DNA of 64,000 bases, taken from the NCBI GenBank assembly GCA_030600585.1, contig JAUVLU010000002.1, forward strand, positions 2,740-66,739. The letters run 5' to 3'. The position numbers and the translations under genes were made by a program. A model generated the notes under the pieces. The model saw only the letters and a program-made list of their open reading frames with translations, searched no databases and was not told the DNA's origin. This document shows, one piece after another, positions 11,384 through 44,621 of the stretch. How positions within the stretch are numbered: position 1 is the stretch's first letter; each line of letters begins with the position of its first letter. Source of the DNA: Candidatus Cloacimonadota bacterium. Lineage in GTDB: Bacteria; Cloacimonadota; Cloacimonadia; Cloacimonadales; TCS61.

Positions 11384-11578
11384 TTAGATACCGAGCATTT
11401 TTTTCATTCTTGCTGTATCATTTGAATTTACAAGACCTGACTTTCTTAAGTTTCTTTTTCTTTTAGATGATTTTTTGGTAAGTATATGACCAGCATAAGC
11501 ATGTGATCTTTTAAGTTTTCCTTTGCCAGTAACTTTAAATCTTTTAGCTACTGCCCTGCGTGTTTTGAGTTTAGGCAT
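11384..11578 (-). CDS. rpmI: 50S ribosomal protein L35
   Basis: 64 aa. [24 protein letters not shown]... is canonical L35. Confidence 0.97.
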
Positions 11579-11592
11579 TTTTCCTCCTGAAA

Positions 11593-12186
11593 TTATTCTT
11601 CTATGTTTTCATACTCTTCTAATAAATTATCAATATCCTTCTTTGGTGCGATTATTGTAAAAACAGTTCTACCTTCATTCTTCGGTTTTACTTCAACATC
11701 AACCAGAGGTTTAAGCTCTTCTAATATCCGCTCTAGTAATTTAAAGCCGATATCACGATGAGCAAGCTGTCTTCCTCTAAAACGAACTGTTAATTTTACC
11801 TTGTTGTGCTGACTTAAGAATTTGATAGCATGTACTTTCTTAAAATTGTAGTCATGATCTTCAGTGTTCGGACCGAATTTCACTTCTTTAGTCTGTACAA
11901 TGTGTTGATTCTTCCTTGCTTCACGTAATTTTCTTTCCTTTTTGTAATAATATGTGCCAAAATCCAGAATTTTACATACCGGTGGATTTGCATTTGGTGA
12001 AATTTCTACAAGATCAAGTCCTGCTCTTTCAGCTTCTTGCAATGCTTTTGACATCGGAACAACTCCGACTTGTTTACCTGTTTCAGAAATCAGTCTTACC
12101 GACTGTGCTCTAATCTGACCATTGATTCTTTCTTTAGGTGCAGTAGGCTTTGTTTTAGCCTTACCTCTTCTAATGCGAATAGAAAT
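11593..12186 (-). CDS. infC: Translation initiation factor IF-3, with AUU start codon
   Basis: The ORF-track ATG (12054) truncates the N-domain. The frame stays open upstream to an AUU at 12186-12184, which lies 5 nt after AGGAGG. The added residues ([44 protein letters not shown]) contain the conserved IF3 N-terminal INxQIRAxxVRLI motif. An AUU start is the known autoregulatory feature of infC. Confidence 0.9.
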
Positions 12187-12210
12187 ATGAACCTCCTTGT
12201 TCTTTCTTTA

Positions 12211-12240
12211 AAATAAAAAAGGGTGGAATAAATCCACCCG
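12211..12240 (-). terminator. Intrinsic terminator hairpin inside the infC operon leader (possible attenuator)
   Basis: On the minus strand, cGGGUGGA-UUUAU-UCCACCC is followed by UUUUUUAUUUU and ends about 15 nt before the infC Shine-Dalgarno. No minus-strand gene lies upstream for more than 600 nt. Confidence 0.5.
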
Positions 12241-12870
12241 CCATTACACATTTATATATAATTTAGCACTTTTATTTTCATAACCTTAACAAGTATCCCA
12301 AATCTAATAGGAACCGTAAGGTAGAAGCGGGTAGCTTCTTTTTTATTAACAAGATACAAAAAAAATTCATCTCTTGATGAGTCAAGTTTTTTATTTTCAT
12401 TTATTTTATAATAACTTATTCAGAAATTCAAAATTAACATAAAGAATTTCTTATAATAAAAGCTTATGAAAAAAAATACTTGTCAATTTGACATAAATAA
12501 TAATATTTATATTTTAATATAATAAAAATGGAAAAAGGAGGCAAAATGGAAAAAATATTTACTTCTACTTTTCTTAAAGTAATTTTTGTATTTACGTATT
12601 TATTATGTGTTGCATGATAAATGAATTGAACAATAAAAATTATCCGACATTACAATATTCAAAGCAAAATATTTATATTTTGGCTTCTTTCAATGAAATA
12701 ATTAGAGAAAAAATAATTACCAAAAATAATGATTTAACATACAATGATCATAATAATGTTAGACTACCGATAATTTCAAAAAAGAAGATAAAATCACAAC
12801 TATTATCAACAGCGTCTATAATCAAATCCCAAAAAGGAAAATAAACAATAAATATCAAAAAAAAAGGAGA

Positions 12871-13161
12871 ATGAAAATGAAAAAGAATCTTAGTTTGATC
12901 GTATTAGTAGCTTTTGTAGTTTCAGTAATCAATGTGTTTGCTATTATCAATAGCAGTAATGACACATCTGTTCAGGCAATTGTAGAAAGCAATATTTGTA
13001 CAGCACAGGGTGATTTTATGCCTGCACCATTTAATGAGATTGATGAAACAATCGTTGAAGAATTATCAATCGAGAAAAATGACTTGATTTGCAGTGCTCA
13101 GGGCGGCGTAAGACCACCACCATGGGATGACGAAGAAGATTACGTACCAAGCGGAAGTTAA
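12871..13161 (+). CDS. Secreted Cys-containing peptide, paralog 1 (unknown family)
   Basis: 96 aa. AAGGAGA RBS, with a likelier start at the second ATG (12877). Signal peptide KKNLSLIVLVAFVVSVINVFA. Internal repeat ICTAQGDFMPAPF / ICSAQGGVRPPPW and an acidic tail DDEEDYVPSGS. Confidence 0.7.
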   Translation: MKMKKNLSLIVLVAFVVSVINVFAIINSSNDTSVQAIVESNICTAQGDFMPAPFNEIDETIVEELSIEKNDLICSAQGGVRPPPWDDEEDYVPSGS

Positions 13162-13179
13162 AAAAAATAATTAAGGAGA

Positions 13180-13461
13180 ATGAAAATGAAAAAGAATCTT
13201 AGTTTGATCGTATTAGTAGCTTTTGTAGTTTCAATAATCAATGTGTTTGCTGTTATCAATAGCAGTAATGACACATCTATCCGGGCAATTGTAGAAAGCA
13301 ATATTTGTACAGCACAGGGTGACTTTATGCCTGCACCATTCGAGGAAGTAATCGTTGAAGAATTATCAATCGAGAAAAATGACCTGATTTGCAGTGCCCA
13401 AGGCGGCGTAAGACCTCCACCATGGGATGACGAAGAAGATTACGTACCAAGCGGAAGTTAA
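13180..13461 (+). CDS. Secreted Cys-containing peptide, paralog 2 (tandem duplicate)
   Basis: 93 aa. Near-identical nucleotide copy of 12871-13161, including the RBS, with one 9-nt indel. All five substitutions in the C-terminal half are synonymous. Confidence 0.7.
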   Translation: MKMKKNLSLIVLVAFVVSIINVFAVINSSNDTSIRAIVESNICTAQGDFMPAPFEEVIVEELSIEKNDLICSAQGGVRPPPWDDEEDYVPSGS

Positions 13462-13493
13462 AAAAAAATAATTGATATAAGCATATATTTTTT

Positions 13494-14165
13494 ATGATAA
13501 CTTTTATACAGCAGTATGGAGTAGTAATATTGCATCCAATTGTGTTAATATGTTGGTTTTTGGTTTACAAAAATAAATCAGGAGATTCACAATTAACTAA
13601 TTTCAGCATTAAAATGATGATGATATTCCTTCTGATATTTATTATATGGGATTTTATTGCACTTCTATTTTCAGATAATGTTAGTTTGGCGAGAAATATA
13701 TATCTTTTCTTCTGGGTAATAATAACCATTTATGAATTCTTCGTTATTCTTAAAGCTCTTTTTATCTCGTTAAGTTTTGGAAAAAGTCAGAATAAAATAC
13801 TATTAATCATTTTATTCATATTATCCATTCCTGTGATATTAGCAGCAATATTATCTCATACAAAAAGAACTTATAATCCAATAAACACAACTGATTTTTA
13901 TAATATGATCTTATTGTTATTTGGAACCGTTCTTATATTAAGGAATATATTATCTACCGGATTTTTCGTTGATAATATTGAATCTTTCTTTATTTATACG
14001 GGGTTTGCTTTATACTTTGGATTGCATATTCTTGCGAGTAATACAGTCTCAATAAATTTCCGATATTATTGGTTCTTCGCACAATATGCAACATTGATCA
14101 GTTTAATTTATTGGATGGGGAGCGTATTTTTTATATGGAAAATCAAATCCAAGCATTTGTTTTAA
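13494..14165 (+). CDS. Polytopic membrane protein (6-7 TM), possible sensor module of the downstream HD-GYP protein
   Basis: 223 aa, almost entirely hydrophobic helices. Its 3' end overlaps the next ORF, which is in the -1 frame. Confidence 0.55.
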   Translation: MITFIQQYGVVILHPIVLICWFLVYKNKSGDSQLTNFSIKMMMIFLLIFIIWDFIALLFSDNVSLARNIYLFFWVIITIYEFFVILKALFISLSFGKSQNKILLIILFILSIPVILAAILSHTKRTYNPINTTDFYNMILLLFGTVLILRNILSTGFFVDNIESFFIYTGFALYFGLHILASNTVSINFRYYWFFAQYATLISLIYWMGSVFFIWKIKSKHLF

Positions 14166-15316
14166 TCTCTTCGATTTCTTTAGCACTTTTCATTTTGATC
14201 GGAGTTTATCTAATTATTCGGTTAAAATTGAATGATATTCTACTTAAAAAATCAGAGGAGAAGCTCAAGAACTTTAATGAAACACTTCAATATATGGTAG
14301 CGGAAAAGACCGAAGAAGTACAGAAGTCAGAAAAAAAATTCCGTAATCTTTACGAATTAAATAAAGAAGTTCTGGAAAACTCACCCGCAGGTATCATTAA
14401 ATTGAATCGGAAACATGAAATAGATTACATGAATCAGGAAAGTTTATTGTTGTTGTCACCTGGTGATGATGAAAACACAAATGATCTGATTGGACAATTA
14501 ATATCACGAATCCCGCAATTTAATAGATCCGGTTGGGCAAGCCTTTTCAACCAATTGAAGAAAGGCAATGAAATTGAAGGTGAAGAAACATTTTCTAATG
14601 AAAGTAAAAAAGCTATTGTTAAGATCAAAGGTGTACCCATTCTTGAGGAAAGAATATATTCTGGTTCCGTGCTTCTTCTAAATGACAATACTGAGAGTAT
14701 TCTAGCAGAAGAAAAATTAAGACGCAGCTTTAGAATGCTGCAAAAATCAACTGAAGATATTATTCAGGCAATGTCTTATACATCCGAGATCAGAGATCCT
14801 TACACTGCCGGTCATCAGAAAAAAGTATGTGAACTGGCAGAAGCTATCGGTAAAGAAATGAATATCACGGAAGAACAATTGCAAGGAGTAAAATTCGCTG
14901 CAATGATACATGATATCGGCAAAATTTCTGTCCCTTCGGATATATTATCAAAACCAGGAAAGATTGGAGTTACAGAATTTGAAGTTGTAAAAAGTCATAG
15001 TCAAACAGGATATGAACTTCTTGATAAGATCAATTTTCCGTGGCCAATTTCAGATATTGTACATCAGCATCATGAAAGGTTAGATGGAAGTGGATATCCG
15101 AACGGACTCAAAGAAAATGATATCCTTCTTGAAGCTAAGATAATTGCAGTTGCCGACACAGTGGAAGCAATGACATCACATCGGCCCTATAGACCTGCTC
15201 TGGGAATAAAAATAGCTCTTGAAGAAATTACCACTAACAGAGGTAAGTATTTCGATTCTAACGTAGTTGATGCATGTACTAGTATCTTTGATAATGGCTT
15301 CCAATTTTCAACTTAA
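14135..15316 (+). CDS. TM / coiled-coil / PAS-like / HD-GYP domain protein (c-di-GMP phosphodiesterase family)
   Basis: The ATG at 14135 begins a TM helix (ISSISLALFILIGVYLII). C-terminal motifs HDIGKISVP and HQHHERLDGSGYPNGL define HD-GYP. Confidence 0.8.
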   Translation: MENQIQAFVLISSISLALFILIGVYLIIRLKLNDILLKKSEEKLKNFNETLQYMVAEKTEEVQKSEKKFRNLYELNKEVLENSPAGIIKLNRKHEIDYMNQESLLLLSPGDDENTNDLIGQLISRIPQFNRSGWASLFNQLKKGNEIEGEETFSNESKKAIVKIKGVPILEERIYSGSVLLLNDNTESILAEEKLRRSFRMLQKSTEDIIQAMSYTSEIRDPYTAGHQKKVCELAEAIGKEMNITEEQLQGVKFAAMIHDIGKISVPSDILSKPGKIGVTEFEVVKSHSQTGYELLDKINFPWPISDIVHQHHERLDGSGYPNGLKENDILLEAKIIAVADTVEAMTSHRPYRPALGIKIALEEITTNRGKYFDSNVVDACTSIFDNGFQFST

Positions 15317-15330
15317 ATAAAGGACATTGT

Positions 15331-17418
15331 TTGATTAACAAAATAATTATTCTATCAATGTATATTGTATTAATAAGCTCATTATGTGGCGCACTTAATG
15401 TTCCATATTCTGATAAAGCGGTATATTCGGAACAAAATCAAATAAGCAATTTCCTAAGCAGCATTCCACCTGATTCTTCCAACATTCCACTTGAAACAAA
15501 CTGCTGGATCTGGCATGATAACGATAATCTATATTTCTCATGGGAAGCAGAAACAGATGAGAATTTTATTATCGGGAAATTTTCTCCTTACGATGTTTCT
15601 GCACAAGCAGATCAACTCTGTGTTCAAATAATCACTGATCACATAAATTATTATGCTTATGGATTTATGGCTTATCCTTTAGAAAACAAATCTGATTTTG
15701 TTCGCTCTTCTTCACACTCACTGAATTTTGACTGGAACAGCACCTACGAATATTCATCAATAAACCGGAATTCTGAATGGAGTGTTGTAATGAAAATTCC
15801 ATTTAAGGATTTACGATTCAACGGAAAACCACCTTATAATTGGAAAATAATCCTAACTCGTTATATAAAAATTGATGATAAATATTACACAACTCCATTC
15901 CTGACAACACAAATGGGAAAAGATTATTTTAAAAAGGCAATAGACATTACGATAAACAAAGAGATCTGTAAAGATAGAAATTTTTATTTGCGACCATTTT
16001 TTATCGTAAAATCTGACCTGATTGAGAATGAAACTAAACTTGATTATGAAAGCTTTGGGCTTGATCTATCACTTAAACCCACCTCTTCTTCCAAATTAAA
16101 ATTCACGTATAATCCGGATTTCTCGGATGTACCAATCGATGATGAAACAAATAATTTTAATTCTAAATATGCTCCATCTTATGCAGAAAATAGATATTTC
16201 TTTATAAAGGATTTCAATGTTTTGGGCGTGAGTTCGACATCATTCTATTCACGGCAGATCGTACAACCGGATTTTGCTGTAAAATTCACAGGGAAAACAG
16301 ATAACCTAACTTATGGAATACTCTCCACAAAAGTAAAACAAGTGGTTGAAGACAGAATTATTGTAGATTCCGACGATATATATAATATTATTGCAATAAA
16401 GCCATCAACAGATACCTTCAGCTTCCAATTTACAATTCTTAATAGAATGAATAAAGATTATCATAATGAGGTACTTCACTTAAAACCAAATTGGGAATTT
16501 AAAAAAGATCAATATCTCTGGTTTGATATTAATCTTTCAAATAAGAATACACTTGCGGATGATATAAAAAAGGGATATTATGGATTCGCCGGTTATGATT
16601 ACAAAAGTAAAGATTTCAATCTAACTCTTAGCGCAACGCAGATGAGCAAAGATTATGCAGTTGATATGGGAAAGATATATGAAGATGATTATTACGGTTG
16701 GAATCTTAATTCTTCTTTAAGGAAGGAATTCAACAATAAATTTCTACGCTCGATCACATCAAATATCAATGCAAGCGAAGAGATAGATAATCACACCAGT
16801 AAACTGTTAGAACGTTATGCATACTTTGCTCTAAGTTTGAACTCCAATTACAATCTAAATTTTAAACTTAATTGTAAATCTGTAAAAGAATTATATTCAG
16901 AAAAATATTTCAACAAATACCAGCTTAGTTTCCAGACAACATGGAATAGATCAAACTTACTTAGAACATTTGTCGGCATCACTTACATAAATGATATTAT
17001 TTACGATCTTAATAATGATTATAAAGGTTATTATTTACAATTAGGCTTAAGTAGTATTATTGATAAATACATTACTTATACATTAACCGCCGATAATATA
17101 AAATATTATGACGTCCCGAAAGTAGATTATGTTGATGACAATTACTGGCTTGCAAATATGGATATTTCTTTCAGCCTTTCTAACGAACTCAGTCTTACAA
17201 GTGGTATTCGTTTTAATAATTATGAATATGCTTATACCAACTCAGATTACGAATATCGTGATTACACCCGGCATGTAGGATTATTTTCCAATCTCCGTTG
17301 GCAATTTAAAAAACGAAGTTATATCTATCTCGGTTATAATTCTGCAAACAATAAAATAAATGAGATCAATGAATATAGTCACCAACAAGCTTATTTAAAA
17401 ATTTCTTATTCATTCTAA
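15331..17418 (+). CDS. Putative outer-membrane protein (CBM9-like N-domain plus DUF5916-like beta-barrel)
   Basis: 695 aa. Signal peptide, alternating beta-strand pattern rich in Y/N/S, and a C-terminal ...AYLKISYSF with terminal Phe typical of OM barrels. Family assignment is from memory only. Confidence 0.45.
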   Translation: MINKIIILSMYIVLISSLCGALNVPYSDKAVYSEQNQISNFLSSIPPDSSNIPLETNCWIWHDNDNLYFSWEAETDENFIIGKFSPYDVSAQADQLCVQIITDHINYYAYGFMAYPLENKSDFVRSSSHSLNFDWNSTYEYSSINRNSEWSVVMKIPFKDLRFNGKPPYNWKIILTRYIKIDDKYYTTPFLTTQMGKDYFKKAIDITINKEICKDRNFYLRPFFIVKSDLIENETKLDYESFGLDLSLKPTSSSKLKFTYNPDFSDVPIDDETNNFNSKYAPSYAENRYFFIKDFNVLGVSSTSFYSRQIVQPDFAVKFTGKTDNLTYGILSTKVKQVVEDRIIVDSDDIYNIIAIKPSTDTFSFQFTILNRMNKDYHNEVLHLKPNWEFKKDQYLWFDINLSNKNTLADDIKKGYYGFAGYDYKSKDFNLTLSATQMSKDYAVDMGKIYEDDYYGWNLNSSLRKEFNNKFLRSITSNINASEEIDNHTSKLLERYAYFALSLNSNYNLNFKLNCKSVKELYSEKYFNKYQLSFQTTWNRSNLLRTFVGITYINDIIYDLNNDYKGYYLQLGLSSIIDKYITYTLTADNIKYYDVPKVDYVDDNYWLANMDISFSLSNELSLTSGIRFNNYEYAYTNSDYEYRDYTRHVGLFSNLRWQFKKRSYIYLGYNSANNKINEINEYSHQQAYLKISYSF

Positions 17419-17614
17419 AGAACTAATTTTTTATGTAAAATTCTGATTGGTTTTTTCTTATCTGAAATCATATTATCATTATTTGATTAAATTTATTGTA
17501 GTATTTTATACTGTAATATTTTAAAAGAACATACCTTTAAAAAACATTTGACATTCATTCCCTGTTTTTAAAAACCTACCTCCAAATAAGATCTTTGGGA
17601 GAGTGTAATAAATT

Positions 17615-18073
17615 ATGAAATTTAAAACCGAGATTGATATTGCAATTAACAAGTTTATTAGCAAAAAAGGTGTTTTGATCCCACTTCTACAAAATGTTCA
17701 AAATATCGAAGGATACTTATCTAAAGATTTGATGAGCTACGTTTCAGAAAAAACAGGAATCAAACTTGCACACATTTACGGCGTTGCAACATTTTATACA
17801 ATGTTTCGATTAAAACCACAGGGTAAACATATTATACGAGTTTGCAAAGGAACTGCCTGCCATGTTTCCGATGCGAATTCCATCATGAATGAGGTCAATA
17901 ATCAGTTAGATCTATCCGGGGAAGAAGATACAACTAAAGATGGAAAATTTACGGTAATGCAGGTTGCCTGTCTCGGTTGTTGCAGTCTTGCTCCTGTTAT
18001 TATGGTAAATGATAATACATACGGCAAATTAACTCCCGCTTCAATTGGGAAAATATTAAAGAAATACGAATAG
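17615..18073 (+). CDS. NuoE/HydC-like [2Fe-2S] thioredoxin-fold subunit
   Basis: 152 aa. Cluster ligands are in CKGTACHV ... CLGCCSLAPV. Confidence 0.9.
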   Translation: MKFKTEIDIAINKFISKKGVLIPLLQNVQNIEGYLSKDLMSYVSEKTGIKLAHIYGVATFYTMFRLKPQGKHIIRVCKGTACHVSDANSIMNEVNNQLDLSGEEDTTKDGKFTVMQVACLGCCSLAPVIMVNDNTYGKLTPASIGKILKKYE

Positions 18074-23414: not shown

Positions 23415-26006
23415 ATGCGATATTTCCTTGCGTTTATAGTTGTTTTCTGCTCTATTAGCTTATTAATGGCAGGTAAGAAAATTGACAGTTTAGAAGTATG
23501 TTTGAAGATAGCCGGTCAAAATGAAAAGGTTATTCTTTTAAATGAACTTTCACAAGCATATCAGGAAATATCCGCCCGTAAAAGTATAACATATGCTCAA
23601 TCAGCTCTTCAGATTTCTCAGGAATCAGGTATTAGAAAAGACATTGCCAAATCACTCACAAATTTAGGTTCAGCATATTACCATCTCAGTAACTATAAGA
23701 GAGCACTGGAATTTCATTCTAAATCCCTTGAAATATATCAACAATTGACAGATAAGACCGGAATGTTGATCGTTAATAACTGTATAGGGCTGGATCATGA
23801 AAAACTTGGTAATTATGATAAAGCTCTAAATTTCTTTTTTATCTCATTAAAGCTAAGTAATGAAACTAATAACCAAGATGGTATTTCAATGGGACTCAAC
23901 AATTTAGGAAATCTTTTTCACTCATTGAACAACTACGATAAAGCTCTCGAATATTACCGGCAAGCACTTGAGATAGAAAAACATAACGGGAATAAAAAAA
24001 CAATCTCGATTGCCTTAAATAATATTGGGACCACATTTGCTGATCGTGGAGATTATTCAGAATCTATAGAATATTTTAACCAGTCTTTAGAAATTGAACA
24101 AAAACTTGAAAATATTAAAGGTCTTTCTTCAGTATTGAATAACCTGGGTATTGTTCATGAAAAGTTACACGAATATAATAAAGCATTAACCTACTTCCAA
24201 AGATCACTCGATCTTATCCTGGAAACCGGTAATCAATACGGAATTGCTGATACATTTATCAATATCGGTAAATTGCAATTACTAATGAATAATATGTCTG
24301 ATGCTTACGCAAATATTAATCAAGGTCTTAAATTTGCTTCTGATATTGGGGCAAAACATCTTATCATGAATGGTTATCTTGCACTATCAGACTTCTATAA
24401 AGCAAATAAAAACAGTGATGAATCTTTACGATATTTCAGGCTTCACTCAAAAATTAAAGATGAAATATTCAGTGAAGAAATGACTCAAGAGATCATAAAC
24501 ATACAAACACAAATTGAAATGGAAGAAAGAGAACACGACATCATCCGATTAGAAAAAAATAATGAGATAATGACACTTAAGACCGAAAAGAAGAACCTGC
24601 ATTTATTACTTCTTCTTGCCAGTCTTTCCATAGTCACCGGTTTTTCAATAATTCAGTATAATCGATATAAGAACAATAAAGACAACAATAAGTTACTACA
24701 AAATGAGGTCCTCGATAGAATGTCGACAGAAAAAAGATTAATAAAGAGATTGAAAATTGAAAAGGTTATCACAAAGATATCGGCAAGATTCATTAATGTT
24801 TCTGATTTCGATACAGCCGTTGATGAAACCTTGAAAGAAATTGGTGAAATGTGTGGAGCAGACCGCTCATACCTTTTCCTGTTAAATAATAATAAAGACA
24901 TGTTAGATAACACCCATGAATGGTGTGATGAAGGTGTGCAACCCGAAATAAGCAATCTTCAGGATATCCCAATCAATACATTACCATGGTGGATGAGTAA
25001 ATTAGAGAATGATGAAGTAATACATATTGTTGATGTTTCTAAAATGCCGAATGAAGCACATATAGAAAAAAAGATGTTACAAGATCAGAATATTAAATCA
25101 TTATTGGTGCTGCCATTAAAATCGGCTGGTTATTTGATCGGTTTTATGGGATTTGATAATGTGTCAAAGGCTGAAGAATGGAAGGAAGAGGAGCTTTCAC
25201 TTTTAAATATTTCTTCTGAAATATTAGGTATCTATTTCGAAAAAAGAGAGATCGATTCCAAATTAGAAAAATCTTATTTCGAATTAGAGAAACGTGTGCA
25301 TGACAGAACTAGAGAATTGGCAGAAACAAATCATGAACTTCAAGTTGAAGTTACTGAAAAGAAAAAAATTGAGATCCAACTTAATGATAGTTTCATCAAA
25401 TTAAAAAAAGCTATTGAAGAGACGATTAATGCTTTCATATCCGCAGTTGAAATTCGTGATCCATATACTGCGGGACATCAACTAAGAGTTGCAAAATTGA
25501 GCTATGAAATTGCCAGTGAAATGAATTTGAACAAAATGCAGCTTGATGCGATACGAATCGCTGCGATTCTTCATGATATTGGCAAAATTTATATACCGAA
25601 TGAAATTCTCTCTAAGCCATCTCCTCTCACAGAAACAGAATTCTGCGTGATCAAAAATCATCCTCTTGCCGGATATGACATTTTAAAAACAATAAATTTT
25701 CAAATGCCTGTCGCCAAAATTGTATATCAACATCATGAAAAACTTGATGGCTCAGGTTATCCACAAGGTCTTATCGGAAACGAAATAATGCTGGAAGCAA
25801 GAATCGTGAATGTTGCCGATGTTGTAGATGCAATGATATCCCAACGTCCTTATCGATCTTCACAAAGCATTGAAGATGCACTCAAAGAAATAAAAGTAAA
25901 CTCAGGTATTTTATACGATCCGGAAGTAGTAGAAGTTTGTTTATATGTATTTAATGAAAAAGGATTTCAATTCGAAGAGATCAAAATAAGAACTGCCTCG
26001 AGGTAA
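23415..26006 (+). CDS. TPR / TM / GAF / HD-GYP multidomain signalling protein
   Basis: 863 aa. Signal peptide, about 8 TPR units (NLGSAYYHL..., NNLGNLFHSL...), a TM helix (LLLLLASLSIVTGFSII), a GAF-like region, then HDIGKIYIP and YQHHEKLDGSGYPQGL. Confidence 0.8.
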   Translation: MRYFLAFIVVFCSISLLMAGKKIDSLEVCLKIAGQNEKVILLNELSQAYQEISARKSITYAQSALQISQESGIRKDIAKSLTNLGSAYYHLSNYKRALEFHSKSLEIYQQLTDKTGMLIVNNCIGLDHEKLGNYDKALNFFFISLKLSNETNNQDGISMGLNNLGNLFHSLNNYDKALEYYRQALEIEKHNGNKKTISIALNNIGTTFADRGDYSESIEYFNQSLEIEQKLENIKGLSSVLNNLGIVHEKLHEYNKALTYFQRSLDLILETGNQYGIADTFINIGKLQLLMNNMSDAYANINQGLKFASDIGAKHLIMNGYLALSDFYKANKNSDESLRYFRLHSKIKDEIFSEEMTQEIINIQTQIEMEEREHDIIRLEKNNEIMTLKTEKKNLHLLLLLASLSIVTGFSIIQYNRYKNNKDNNKLLQNEVLDRMSTEKRLIKRLKIEKVITKISARFINVSDFDTAVDETLKEIGEMCGADRSYLFLLNNNKDMLDNTHEWCDEGVQPEISNLQDIPINTLPWWMSKLENDEVIHIVDVSKMPNEAHIEKKMLQDQNIKSLLVLPLKSAGYLIGFMGFDNVSKAEEWKEEELSLLNISSEILGIYFEKREIDSKLEKSYFELEKRVHDRTRELAETNHELQVEVTEKKKIEIQLNDSFIKLKKAIEETINAFISAVEIRDPYTAGHQLRVAKLSYEIASEMNLNKMQLDAIRIAAILHDIGKIYIPNEILSKPSPLTETEFCVIKNHPLAGYDILKTINFQMPVAKIVYQHHEKLDGSGYPQGLIGNEIMLEARIVNVADVVDAMISQRPYRSSQSIEDALKEIKVNSGILYDPEVVEVCLYVFNEKGFQFEEIKIRTASR

Positions 26007-26078
26007 TTATTTTTTCGCTGACCCAGACTAATTAATTTTATTTAAGATGCATTGATTTCCAAACTATATGGGAGTTTT

Positions 26079-26681
26079 ATGGAAAAGATCGTAAATGCGC
26101 TTATAGCAGCAATTGAAATTTGGGATCCATATACTGCCAGACATCAGAAAAGAGTTGCTACTTTATCTTTAGCAATTGCAAGAGAAATGGGGTTTGATCA
26201 AAAACAACTAGATGTTATGAGAATTGCAGCAATTCTGCATGATATTGGTAAGATCAATCTTCCAACTGAGATTTTATGCAAGCCCGGAAAGTTGGCCGTA
26301 TGTGAATACAATCTCATAAAAATGCATTCTGAAGCAGGATATCAGATATTAAAGAAAATTGATTTTCCCGAAGAAATCGCTGAGATCGTTTTTCAACATC
26401 ATGAATCGTTAGATGGAAGTGGATATCCGCGCGGACTCAAGGGAGATGATATTTGCATAGAAGCCAGGATATTGCATATATCTGATGTGGTTGAAGCAAT
26501 CTCTGCAGACAGACCTTATAGACCGGCAAATGGTATCGAAGAAGCTTTAAAAGAAATTGAAAATGATATTGACGGCAAGTACGATATTAATGCTTGTAAT
26601 ATATGTTTAGACCTATTTAGATATCAGAATTTCAAAATAAAAGAGATTCAAATGCGTGATATAGAACGAACAAGTAGTTAA
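26079..26681 (+). CDS. Stand-alone HD-GYP domain protein
   Basis: The ATG at 26079 is preceded by GGGAG; the track start at 26052 is a TTG without an RBS. Contains HDIGKINLP and FQHHESLDGSGYPRGL. Confidence 0.8.
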   Translation: MEKIVNALIAAIEIWDPYTARHQKRVATLSLAIAREMGFDQKQLDVMRIAAILHDIGKINLPTEILCKPGKLAVCEYNLIKMHSEAGYQILKKIDFPEEIAEIVFQHHESLDGSGYPRGLKGDDICIEARILHISDVVEAISADRPYRPANGIEEALKEIENDIDGKYDINACNICLDLFRYQNFKIKEIQMRDIERTSS

Positions 26682-43420: not shown

Positions 43421-43930
43421 TTATAATAATTTCTTCAGCATTCCGGTATTTCTATCGATAATGTTCATTTCGACTTCCGCTTCTGCCAGCAATTCCTGAG
43501 CAAGTTTATCCTCATATGATTCTGTAATATAAATAGTTTTAATCTCAGCGTTAATAAGAATTTTAGAACAGATAACGCAGGGCTGATTTGTGCAGTAAAG
43601 CGATGCATCCCGAATAGAAGATCCGTTAATGGCAGCTTGGATAACAGCATTCTGCTCAGCGTGAACTCCGCGGCACAATTCATGTCTTTCACCGGATGGA
43701 ACGTTTAATTGTTCGCGAAGACAACCCGTAATTTCACAATGCCTGATATGTTTAGGTGCCCCATTATATCCTGAAGATATAATTTGATTATCCCTCACAA
43801 TAATAGCTCCCACTTGTCTGCGCAAGCAGGTTGATCGTGTACTTGCAAGATATGCCATTTCCATAAAATATTGATGCCAGCTTGGTCTGTTATTCATTTT
43901 TACCTCTATTATTTTTTTTATTTGTCTCAT
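43421..43930 (-). CDS. dCMP deaminase (ComEB family)
   Basis: Zinc motifs HAEQNAV and PCVICSKIL are present. The likely true start is the ATG at 43897 ([15 protein letters not shown]). Confidence 0.85.
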
Positions 43931-44621
43931 TTTGTTGTTGTTTTATTTTCTCGTCCCGTACAAATTCTGCCTGTGATTTCCGTAAGTAATATGGTTCCAA
44001 TTCCGATATACTCTCAAAATCATATTTTGGGATGTTACATTTAAGTGCTATACTTATCAGTGTAGAAGCCAGTGGAATATTCTGATGTTCCAAACAAAAT
44101 ATATGATCGATTCCACTTTTTATGATCTCTTTTTTAAATAATTTTGCGCCATCGCCAACAATGATAACAGGTTCTTTTATCATCTTGAATATCTCAGTTG
44201 GTTTTGCGTTAGTTTCCGGTATCAGAATTTCCAGATCAGGCGAATACAATGCTGCGTAAACTTCCGCCATTCGCGCATCGATAAGTGTAAGTATATTCCT
44301 ATTTGCCGGAAATATATTGTTTGCCAGCAGCTCGAGGGTATTAATTGGTAGTAATGGAATGTTGTGAGCCATGCATATTCCTTTAGCTGTAGCAAGTCCA
44401 ATTCTTACACCTGTAAAAGATCCGGGTCCATTGGCAATTACAACCAGACCTATATCGGAAATATCTATTTTGGAATTCTTAAGCCCGGCATCGATCTGCG
44501 GCAATAAACGCTCTGAATGCGTTACCTTAATATCGAGATGATTGATATATGAGATGTGATCTTTGTTATAAATTGCAATACTGCCGGAAGTTGATGTTGT
44601 GCTTAGAGCAAGTATATTCAA
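43890..44621 (-). CDS. tsaB: tRNA threonylcarbamoyladenosine biosynthesis protein TsaB (YeaZ)
   Basis: 243 aa. Contains [18 protein letters not shown] and [18 protein letters not shown]. Confidence 0.85.

Follow-up and report, generated by a model that had tools for sequence, protein, structure and literature searches.

A long, deeply conserved gene overlap, rather than a frameshift, joins a seven-helix membrane protein to an HD-GYP sensor in Cloacimonadota

Cloacimonadota are abundant, uncultured bacteria of anaerobic digesters. In a stretch of 64,000 nucleotides (nt) from a Candidatus Cloacimonadota bacterium (GenBank assembly GCA_030600585.1, contig JAUVLU010000002.1, positions 2,740 to 66,739 of the forward strand; G+C content 33.6%), which we call the window, two overlapping open reading frames (ORFs) on the + strand raise the question of whether they are two genes or the halves of one. 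ORF1 begins with the ATG at 13494, its stop codon ends at 14165, and it encodes a membrane protein of 223 residues. In the -1 frame, an open stretch extends from 14069, and the first ATG in it, at 14135-14137, begins ORF2 (14135-15316, 393 residues), which encodes a transmembrane (TM) helix, a coiled coil, a PAS domain and an HD-GYP domain. Shortly before this ATG, in the context GTA TTT TTT ATA, lies a run of six T (T6, 14127-14132, +) that forms the ORF1 codons Phe212 and Phe213. The first-pass annotation of this DNA had described these features as we find them, and proposed that a single slip or a 1-nt length change on the run would fuse both products into a receptor of roughly 606 residues. 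It left four possibilities: a sequencing error, a phase-variable switch, programmed frameshifting or a genuine two-gene arrangement. Our analysis indicates that these are almost certainly two real genes, translated separately and without a frameshift. For the overall reading, in which the two genes encode a translationally coupled, split receptor, we would give a probability of roughly 85%, a figure that mainly reflects the two-gene claim.

We fetched 36 Cloacimonadota genome loci, of which 34 contain the junction, so that together with the window 35 junctions could be compared. The start of the partner gene lies 28, 31, 34 or 37 nt before the stop codon of the seven-transmembrane (7TM) gene in 35/35 junctions; all overlaps are therefore 3n+1 nt long and share one frame relation. 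The overlap in the window spans 31 nt (14135-14165, +) and is dual-coding, being read in frame 0 as the ORF1 tail, (I)WKIKSKHLF-stop, and in frame -1 as the ORF2 N-terminus, MENQIQAFVL. The ATG of ORF2 is made up of the last base of the Ile214 codon and the TG of the invariant Trp215 codon. Its position is unchanged in 30 of the 35 junctions, and at the five loci where ATG has become ACG a replacement in-frame ATG stands 6 nt upstream, giving a product that begins MYTENQ. One locus (L037) uses GTG as the start codon of the partner. Codon 214 ends in A at every junction, and wherever it encodes Ile it is ATA (31/31 cases, versus 29% in general usage). The same arrangement was found in four distant lineages recovered by a profile search, with overlaps of 37, 37, 28 and 37 nt. 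Here, a 7TM protein of 226-233 residues is followed, across the overlap, by a single-pass PAS protein or kinase, the start codon again uses the TG of the invariant Trp codon (ATA TGG, TTA TGG or CCG TGG), and a sigma54-type response regulator gene is adjacent or nearby in three of the four.

The Shine-Dalgarno (SD) sequence of ORF2, GGGGAG at 14117-14122 (+), lies inside ORF1 codons 208-210 and is separated from the ATG by 12 nt, which agrees with its earlier description as poorly spaced. It consists of the third base of the ATG codon of Met208, the GGG codon of Gly209 and the first two bases of the AGC codon of Ser210. Gly209 is encoded by GGG at 30/35 junctions, compared with 9% of the Gly codons in the window, and Ser210 by AGY in 33/33 cases, compared with 30% in general usage. 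At two loci (L031 and L035) Gly-Ser has been replaced by Gly-Gly, and the DNA still reads AGGAGG at an unchanged distance from the start. Another conserved gene in the window has a GGAG at -17.

The pattern of conservation along the aligned junctions changes at the start codon. Upstream of the ATG, the variable columns are third positions of ORF1; from +11 on, they are third positions of ORF2; and hardly any variation is seen in columns 0 to +10, the signature of dual coding. A start of ORF2 at the TTG at 14069 was rejected, since the variable columns upstream of the ATG are first positions of that frame; the open stretch upstream of the ATG also ranges from 33 to 159 nt among the loci. At the level of sequence comparison, the alignment shows that the split, the overlap frame, the SD motif and the initiation codon are under selection across the family, and that the T6 run is not. 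The first-pass annotation had itself named orthologs encoding two separate proteins, with a conserved start and ribosome-binding site, as a finding that would speak against fusion. This is what the comparison returned: the orthologs consistently encode two proteins, the start and the ribosome-binding site are conserved, and all 35 junctions share the geometry of the overlapping start. The arrangement is an ordinary gene overlap, though an unusually long and deeply conserved one, across Cloacimonadota.

The T6 run itself is not above chance. The window holds 79 runs of at least six T and 116 runs of at least six A, about 3 per kb, with runs of up to 8-9 nt elsewhere, and TTT TTT is Phe-Phe in an AT-rich genome. 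Among the junctions, a run of at least six T is present in 12/35 and one of at most four in 19/35, and at five loci a T run is absent altogether (for example ...ataatatgtat... or ...gctcttgcatc...). At one locus (L013) a T7 has arisen by substitution, with the frame relation unchanged. Programmed -1 frameshifting on T6 would produce a fused 7TM-TM-PAS-HD-GYP receptor of about 607 residues, as the main or as a regulated minor product. It would be consistent with the -1 relation of the two genes, which is kept at every locus, with the position of the run 3 nt before the ORF2 ATG and with the SD-like GGGGAG just upstream of the run. We nevertheless consider it very improbable, because the slip site is not conserved among the orthologs and the zero-frame heptamer, A_TTT_TTT, does not have the X_XXY_YYZ form; the P-site tRNA would have to re-pair on ATT. 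Moreover, only about 4 nt separate the SD-like element from the run, and a spacing of about 4 nt between SD and slip site favours +1 shifts, as in prfB versus dnaX, and not -1 shifts. RNA folding of 14120-14220 revealed no stimulatory structure (minimum free energy -9.7 kcal/mol, z = +0.65; 147 of 200 shuffled sequences fold at least as well), and no RNA element at the ORF1/ORF2 junction came up when 11500-17700 was scanned with Rfam. Frameshifting would not need the ATG to be conserved or relocated, nor the SD sequence to be selected, and there is no naturally fused ortholog among 61 family representatives. The predicted topology is also unfavourable. Lysine plus arginine average 9.3 in the family on the side of loops 1-2, loops 3-4 and the C-terminal tail, versus 3.4 on the opposite side, and because of this clustering the positive-inside rule predicts an ORF1 whose N-terminus is outside and whose C-terminal tail, rich in K/R, is cytoplasmic. 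With this topology and a linker that is a 7-residue hairpin, fusing the proteins through ...VFF-YMENQ... would be expected to make an eighth helix cross the membrane outwards, so that the PAS and HD-GYP domains would end up outside the cell. An exported cyclic di-GMP (c-di-GMP) enzyme would make no sense, which argues against a functional fusion.

The two remaining explanations of the run can be given even less weight. Some sequencing chemistries frequently misread the length of homopolymers, and altering the run by one T would join the two frames; a sequencing or assembly error (a true T7 or T4) might thus have split one gene artificially. However, an independent Logan assembly (SRR18936871), from a strain that is 99% identical, shows no difference in T6 or junction, and T6 is also present in 10 further assemblies of other species. 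The ORF1 tail past the run is kept in frame 0 throughout the family, including the distant relatives, which end ...PWIRRLKSKLS, and all 79 homologs of ORF1 are about 220 residues in size, which leaves this explanation a negligible chance. Just as hard to credit is a contingency switch between split and fused forms by slipped-strand mispairing. The homopolymer is indeed placed at the frame junction, but T6 is short for a contingency tract in a genome where such runs occur about 3 times per kb. Close relatives show no polymorphism in tract length (11 junctions have an identical T6), the other differences are frame-keeping substitutions, and both reading frames have conserved, functional-looking ends. 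A false candidate for recoding or phase variation is thereby removed. Two questions may be reused in similar cases: do synonymous sites of the upstream gene preserve the start codon and the SD sequence, and is the homopolymer itself conserved?

We then considered what the two genes encode. An AlphaFold2 model of ORF1 based on a 27-sequence alignment is a seven-helix bundle, with a mean predicted local distance difference test score of 86 and a predicted template modelling score of 0.84. ORF1 has no family match in Pfam or NCBIfam, the 7TMR families included. For PF07698 and PF07695, neither ORF1 nor an artificial fusion gave a match in Pfam at E<=1, and ORF1 gave none in NCBIfam at E<=0.01; a Pfam search with ten distant 7TM relatives returned only sub-threshold noise. 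A Foldseek search revealed a generic seven-helix resemblance that is not significant (best E 0.02, TM-score 0.5-0.58), the weak matches including microbial and viral rhodopsins (TM-score about 0.5) and the adiponectin receptor, a 7TM hydrolase. The 79 homologs found have 43-99% identity and recorded lengths of 122-225 residues, and those with a named source all come from Cloacimonadota. When 1.84 billion representative proteins were searched exhaustively with an HMMER profile, 61 matched, all of at most 242 residues, with the profile reaching the C-terminus. No fused form of the 7TM protein with an output domain was found among the 79 homologs or the 61 representatives. Four polar residues, D134, E163, H178 and N183, are invariant and lie within helices 5 and 6 or at their ends. 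Literature searches turned up no publication about this family, nor any about HD-GYP proteins in Cloacimonadota. A family of stand-alone seven-helix membrane proteins outside all curated libraries is now defined. Two contigs of one metagenome-assembled genome (MAG), DAOVQH01, each carry a homolog (L011 and L012, about 54% and 53% identity to ORF1), so that either this genome contains two paralogous cassettes or its bin is a mixture of strains.

ORF2 begins with about seven extracytoplasmic residues (MENQIQA), followed by a TM helix (~14156-14224), the sequence RLKLNDILLKK, a coiled coil, the PAS domain (~14360-14704) and the HD-GYP domain (HD_5, ~14789-15265). Like ORF1, it is predicted to have its N-terminus outside, with the C-terminus inside. 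The HD_5 match (PF13487) has an E value of 1.1e-37 and 129.8 bits, compared with a cut-off of 27.2 bits, and the translation carries the motifs IHDIGK (H-D-x-G-K) and HHERLDGSGYP (HHExxDGxGYP), suggesting that the output of ORF2 is a c-di-GMP phosphodiesterase of the HD-GYP type. The PAS match in ORF2 is weak (Pfam E 0.08), and the corresponding region in homologs passes the Pfam thresholds. Because only about seven residues are extracytoplasmic, we infer that ORF2 cannot sense the outside of the cell alone. From lineage to lineage the partner keeps its N-terminal module (MENQIQ, TM helix, coiled coil and PAS) and varies in its output, which is HD-GYP, HisKA_2+HATPase_c, PAS-GAF-PAS-HisKA-HATPase_c or PAS only. 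Even the kinase of a distant lineage has a homologous N-terminal module (31% identity over 111 residues, E 5e-12). The window contains further HD-GYP proteins at 23415-26006 (+, 863 residues) and, directly after it, 26052-26681 (+, 209 residues), whose HD-GYP domains are 48-50% identical to that of ORF2.

Taken with the two-gene arrangement, these features suggest how the pair may work. ORF1 is translated in frame 0 to its stop codon at 14165, and ORF2 is initiated independently at the ATG at 14135, with the SD sequence in the Gly209-Ser210 codons. The overlap would couple translation of ORF2 to that of ORF1, either by unfolding or by termination-reinitiation. Gene overlaps have been tied to translational coupling and to the subunits of heteromeric complexes (PMC6728339, PMC10666635, PMC12548453), and by analogy with such pairs we think that coupling is probable here. 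The present genes resemble them in lying on the same strand, in having the downstream start and SD sequence inside the upstream gene, in being conserved as a pair and in encoding plausible subunits of one membrane complex. They differ in the length of the overlap, 28-37 nt here versus the usual 1 or 4 nt, and in that a conserved terminus is encoded at each end of the overlap (the 7TM protein's K/R tail and the sensor's MENQIQ). Coupling would provide matched amounts of the two proteins, which would be inserted at one membrane site and assembled into a two-subunit receptor. ORF1 would be the membrane-facing input module, a role proposed because ORF2 has essentially no external part, and a signal within the membrane would pass to the TM helix, coiled coil and PAS domain of ORF2. 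The output in this lineage would be c-di-GMP hydrolysis by the HD-GYP domain, whereas in sister lineages the same input pair would drive histidine kinases. The functional link between the membrane protein and the HD-GYP protein, already suggested by the first-pass annotation, is strongly supported by the conserved pairing; for the split-receptor mechanism itself we consider the odds to be even. It would offer a testable case of how 'blind' PAS sensors in Cloacimonadota get their signal, the family being always tied, in the cases examined, to a sensor without an external input domain. The locus also illustrates how a single input module has come to serve both c-di-GMP and two-component outputs.

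Several points weigh against this reading. Gene callers never report frameshift fusions, and protein databases alone cannot exclude a conserved frameshift; the junctions were therefore examined at the DNA level, where the evidence does exclude one. A rare slip on T6 may still occur in this lineage. The spacing of 12 nt between SD sequence and ATG is longer than the usual optimum, and the overlap of 31 nt is longer than most, since in over 80% of overlapping pairs the shared stretch is below 30 bp (PMC12548453). Coupling, interaction and the direction of signalling are what we infer from gene order and domain logic alone. Finally, the invariant D134, E163, H178 and N183 leave room for ORF1 to be not a receptor but an enzyme or transporter. 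In this alternative, there would again be two genes, but ORF1 would be an intramembrane enzyme or exporter for small motif-repeat proteins encoded upstream (compare AgrB-AgrD), and the overlap would be operon economy. The location of the invariant polar residues, within helices 5 and 6 or at their ends, the small repeated-unit proteins encoded directly upstream and the presence of a 7TM hydrolase among the weak fold matches are consistent with such a role. On the other hand, ORF1 has no protease or transporter family match in Pfam or NCBIfam and no significant fold match. Its partner is always a sensor almost without an extracytoplasmic part, and thus in need of input, and the pairing with the TM-coil-PAS module survives several swaps of the output domain. 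We therefore regard the enzyme or exporter role as unlikely, although it is not mutually exclusive with that of a receptor.

The small proteins just mentioned are encoded by two tandem genes upstream of ORF1. Copy 1 (12871-13161, +, 96 residues, with a signal peptide) is the probable first gene of the cassette, and copy 2 (13180-13461, +, 93 residues, also with a signal peptide) is a paralog about 91% identical to it. A strong AAGGAGA precedes each of the two genes, at a spacing that suits the second ATG of MKMKK best. ORF1, which starts 32 nt past the stop codon of the second gene, has no SD-like sequence and is preceded by an AT-rich leader (...aagcatatatttttt ATG, 13462-13493). Copy 1 carries two Cys-x-AQG-x3-P-x-P-[FW] motifs, CTAQGDFMPAPF and CSAQGGVRPPPW; the C-terminal motif of copy 2, LICSAQGGVRPPPW, matches the C-terminus, VICSGGGAYRPPKW, of a small protein encoded 5' of a distant 7TM relative (pairwise E 3e-5). 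The motif was found nowhere else in the six-frame translation of the window, and the small proteins have no match in Pfam or NCBIfam. At every locus with enough upstream sequence, the 7TM gene is directly preceded by one to three genes of this kind (examples are L006:3391-3981, L013:3485-3898, L018:3514-3921 and L017:3506-3937). In Cloacimonadota, the proteins carry a signal peptide and 2 to about 7 units of [CA]-x-AQGD-x2-P-x-P-[FW] with an acidic spacer; the one from L006 has six extra ASAQGDVRPPSWDEEDNEKIT units. This layout, judged from the sequence, resembles that of a multi-copy peptide precursor. In one assembly (L003:2546-3056), runs of N interrupt the repeat region of the small-protein genes, which suggests that the repeated unit breaks short-read assemblies and that copy numbers in MAGs are perhaps underestimated.

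In the split-receptor scheme, the small motif-repeat proteins would probably form a third part of the system, as precursors of a ligand or as a periplasmic co-factor. We tentatively propose, as a speculative extension that we hold to be rather doubtful, a previously undescribed three-part peptide-sensing cassette throughout Cloacimonadota and the four distant lineages. Its parts would be the small proteins as periplasmic ligands or their precursors, the stand-alone 7TM receptor that would sense them and relay the signal inside the membrane, and the single-pass PAS transducer with interchangeable outputs (HD-GYP, HisKA_2 kinases and sigma54-linked kinases). If true, the cassette would be a split bacterial '7TM receptor plus transducer' system.

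Comparison with known systems places the pair near several of them and within none. LiaF-LiaS and BceAB-BceS are intramembrane-sensing kinases with accessory membrane proteins. SaeP and SaeQ are likewise accessory membrane proteins, encoded beside the intramembrane-sensing kinase SaeS (PMC5083920). The likeness to these systems is that a sensor with a minimal exterior is found beside a polytopic membrane protein (in Sae also a small exported protein), with these neighbours supplying or modulating its input. However, there is no sequence relationship, the partner here has seven helices and belongs to a family outside Pfam and NCBIfam, the output in the window is HD-GYP and not a kinase, and the order of the genes and their overlap have stayed fixed across a far broader evolutionary range. 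In sensory rhodopsin-Htr systems, a stand-alone seven-helix receptor signals in the membrane to a separately encoded transducer that packs its TM helices against it. Unlike microbial rhodopsins, ORF1 has no retinal lysine inside helix 7, its K216, K218 and K220 lying in the cytoplasmic tail, and the transducer here has one TM helix and a PAS domain instead of two TM helices, a HAMP domain and a methyl-accepting domain. The peptide-pheromone sensor kinases AgrC, ComD and PlnB, whose sensor domains are polytopic, resemble the present case in having a small exported precursor gene beside a sensing module of 6-8 TM helices that controls a kinase. In those systems, however, the sensor is fused to the kinase and the precursors need dedicated processing and export proteins, whereas the small proteins here have ordinary signal peptides (in Cloacimonadota) and only a putative ligand role.

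The first-pass annotation had compared the layout with 7TM-receptor-HD proteins. Anantharaman and Aravind reportedly described in 2003 the bacterial 7TM receptors 7TMR-DISM (PF07695) and 7TMR-HD, such as PgpH (PF07698). The resemblance of layout stands, since in both a seven-helix module is linked to swappable cytoplasmic outputs, including HD-type hydrolases and kinases; kinship does not, since ORF1 matches no 7TMR model in Pfam or NCBIfam. Those receptors are single polypeptides, whereas the 7TM module here is separate and at most 242 residues long, and the HD domain is of the HD-GYP type. By analogy, the nearest functional counterparts would be the SaePQ-SaeS and LiaF-LiaS accessory proteins, the sensory rhodopsin-transducer pairs and the fused 7TM receptors. 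Membership in these families finds no support in sequence (Pfam and NCBIfam) or in architecture, no member of the ORF1 family exceeding 242 residues.

Downstream of the pair, starting 14 nt past ORF2, an ORF at 15331-17418 (+) encodes a protein of 695 residues without a Pfam or NCBIfam match. It has a hydrophobic N-terminus and the C-terminal end ...YLKISYSF. The gene is syntenic 3' of the pair in most Cloacimonadota loci, with an HD-GYP or a kinase partner alike, and is missing from the most divergent clade (L026, L027, L029, L030 and L033) and from the distant relatives. No terminator-like site was found on the + strand between 12340 and 17700. To judge from its position, the 695-residue ORF may be co-transcribed with the pair; its membership in the system is unproven.

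Two observations concern the - strand of the window. The ORFs at 43421-43930 (-) and 43890-44621 (-) are co-directional and have an apparent overlap of 41 nt, possibly an artefact of calling the start of the longest ORF. At 12209-12349 (-), the ribosomal protein L20 leader model RF00558 gave a sub-threshold match (46.2 bits versus a gathering score of 58.7, E 5.8e-7). It sits upstream of infC (11593-12054, -), in the same place as the leader in Firmicutes, and contains a terminator-like hairpin at 12239-12221 (-).

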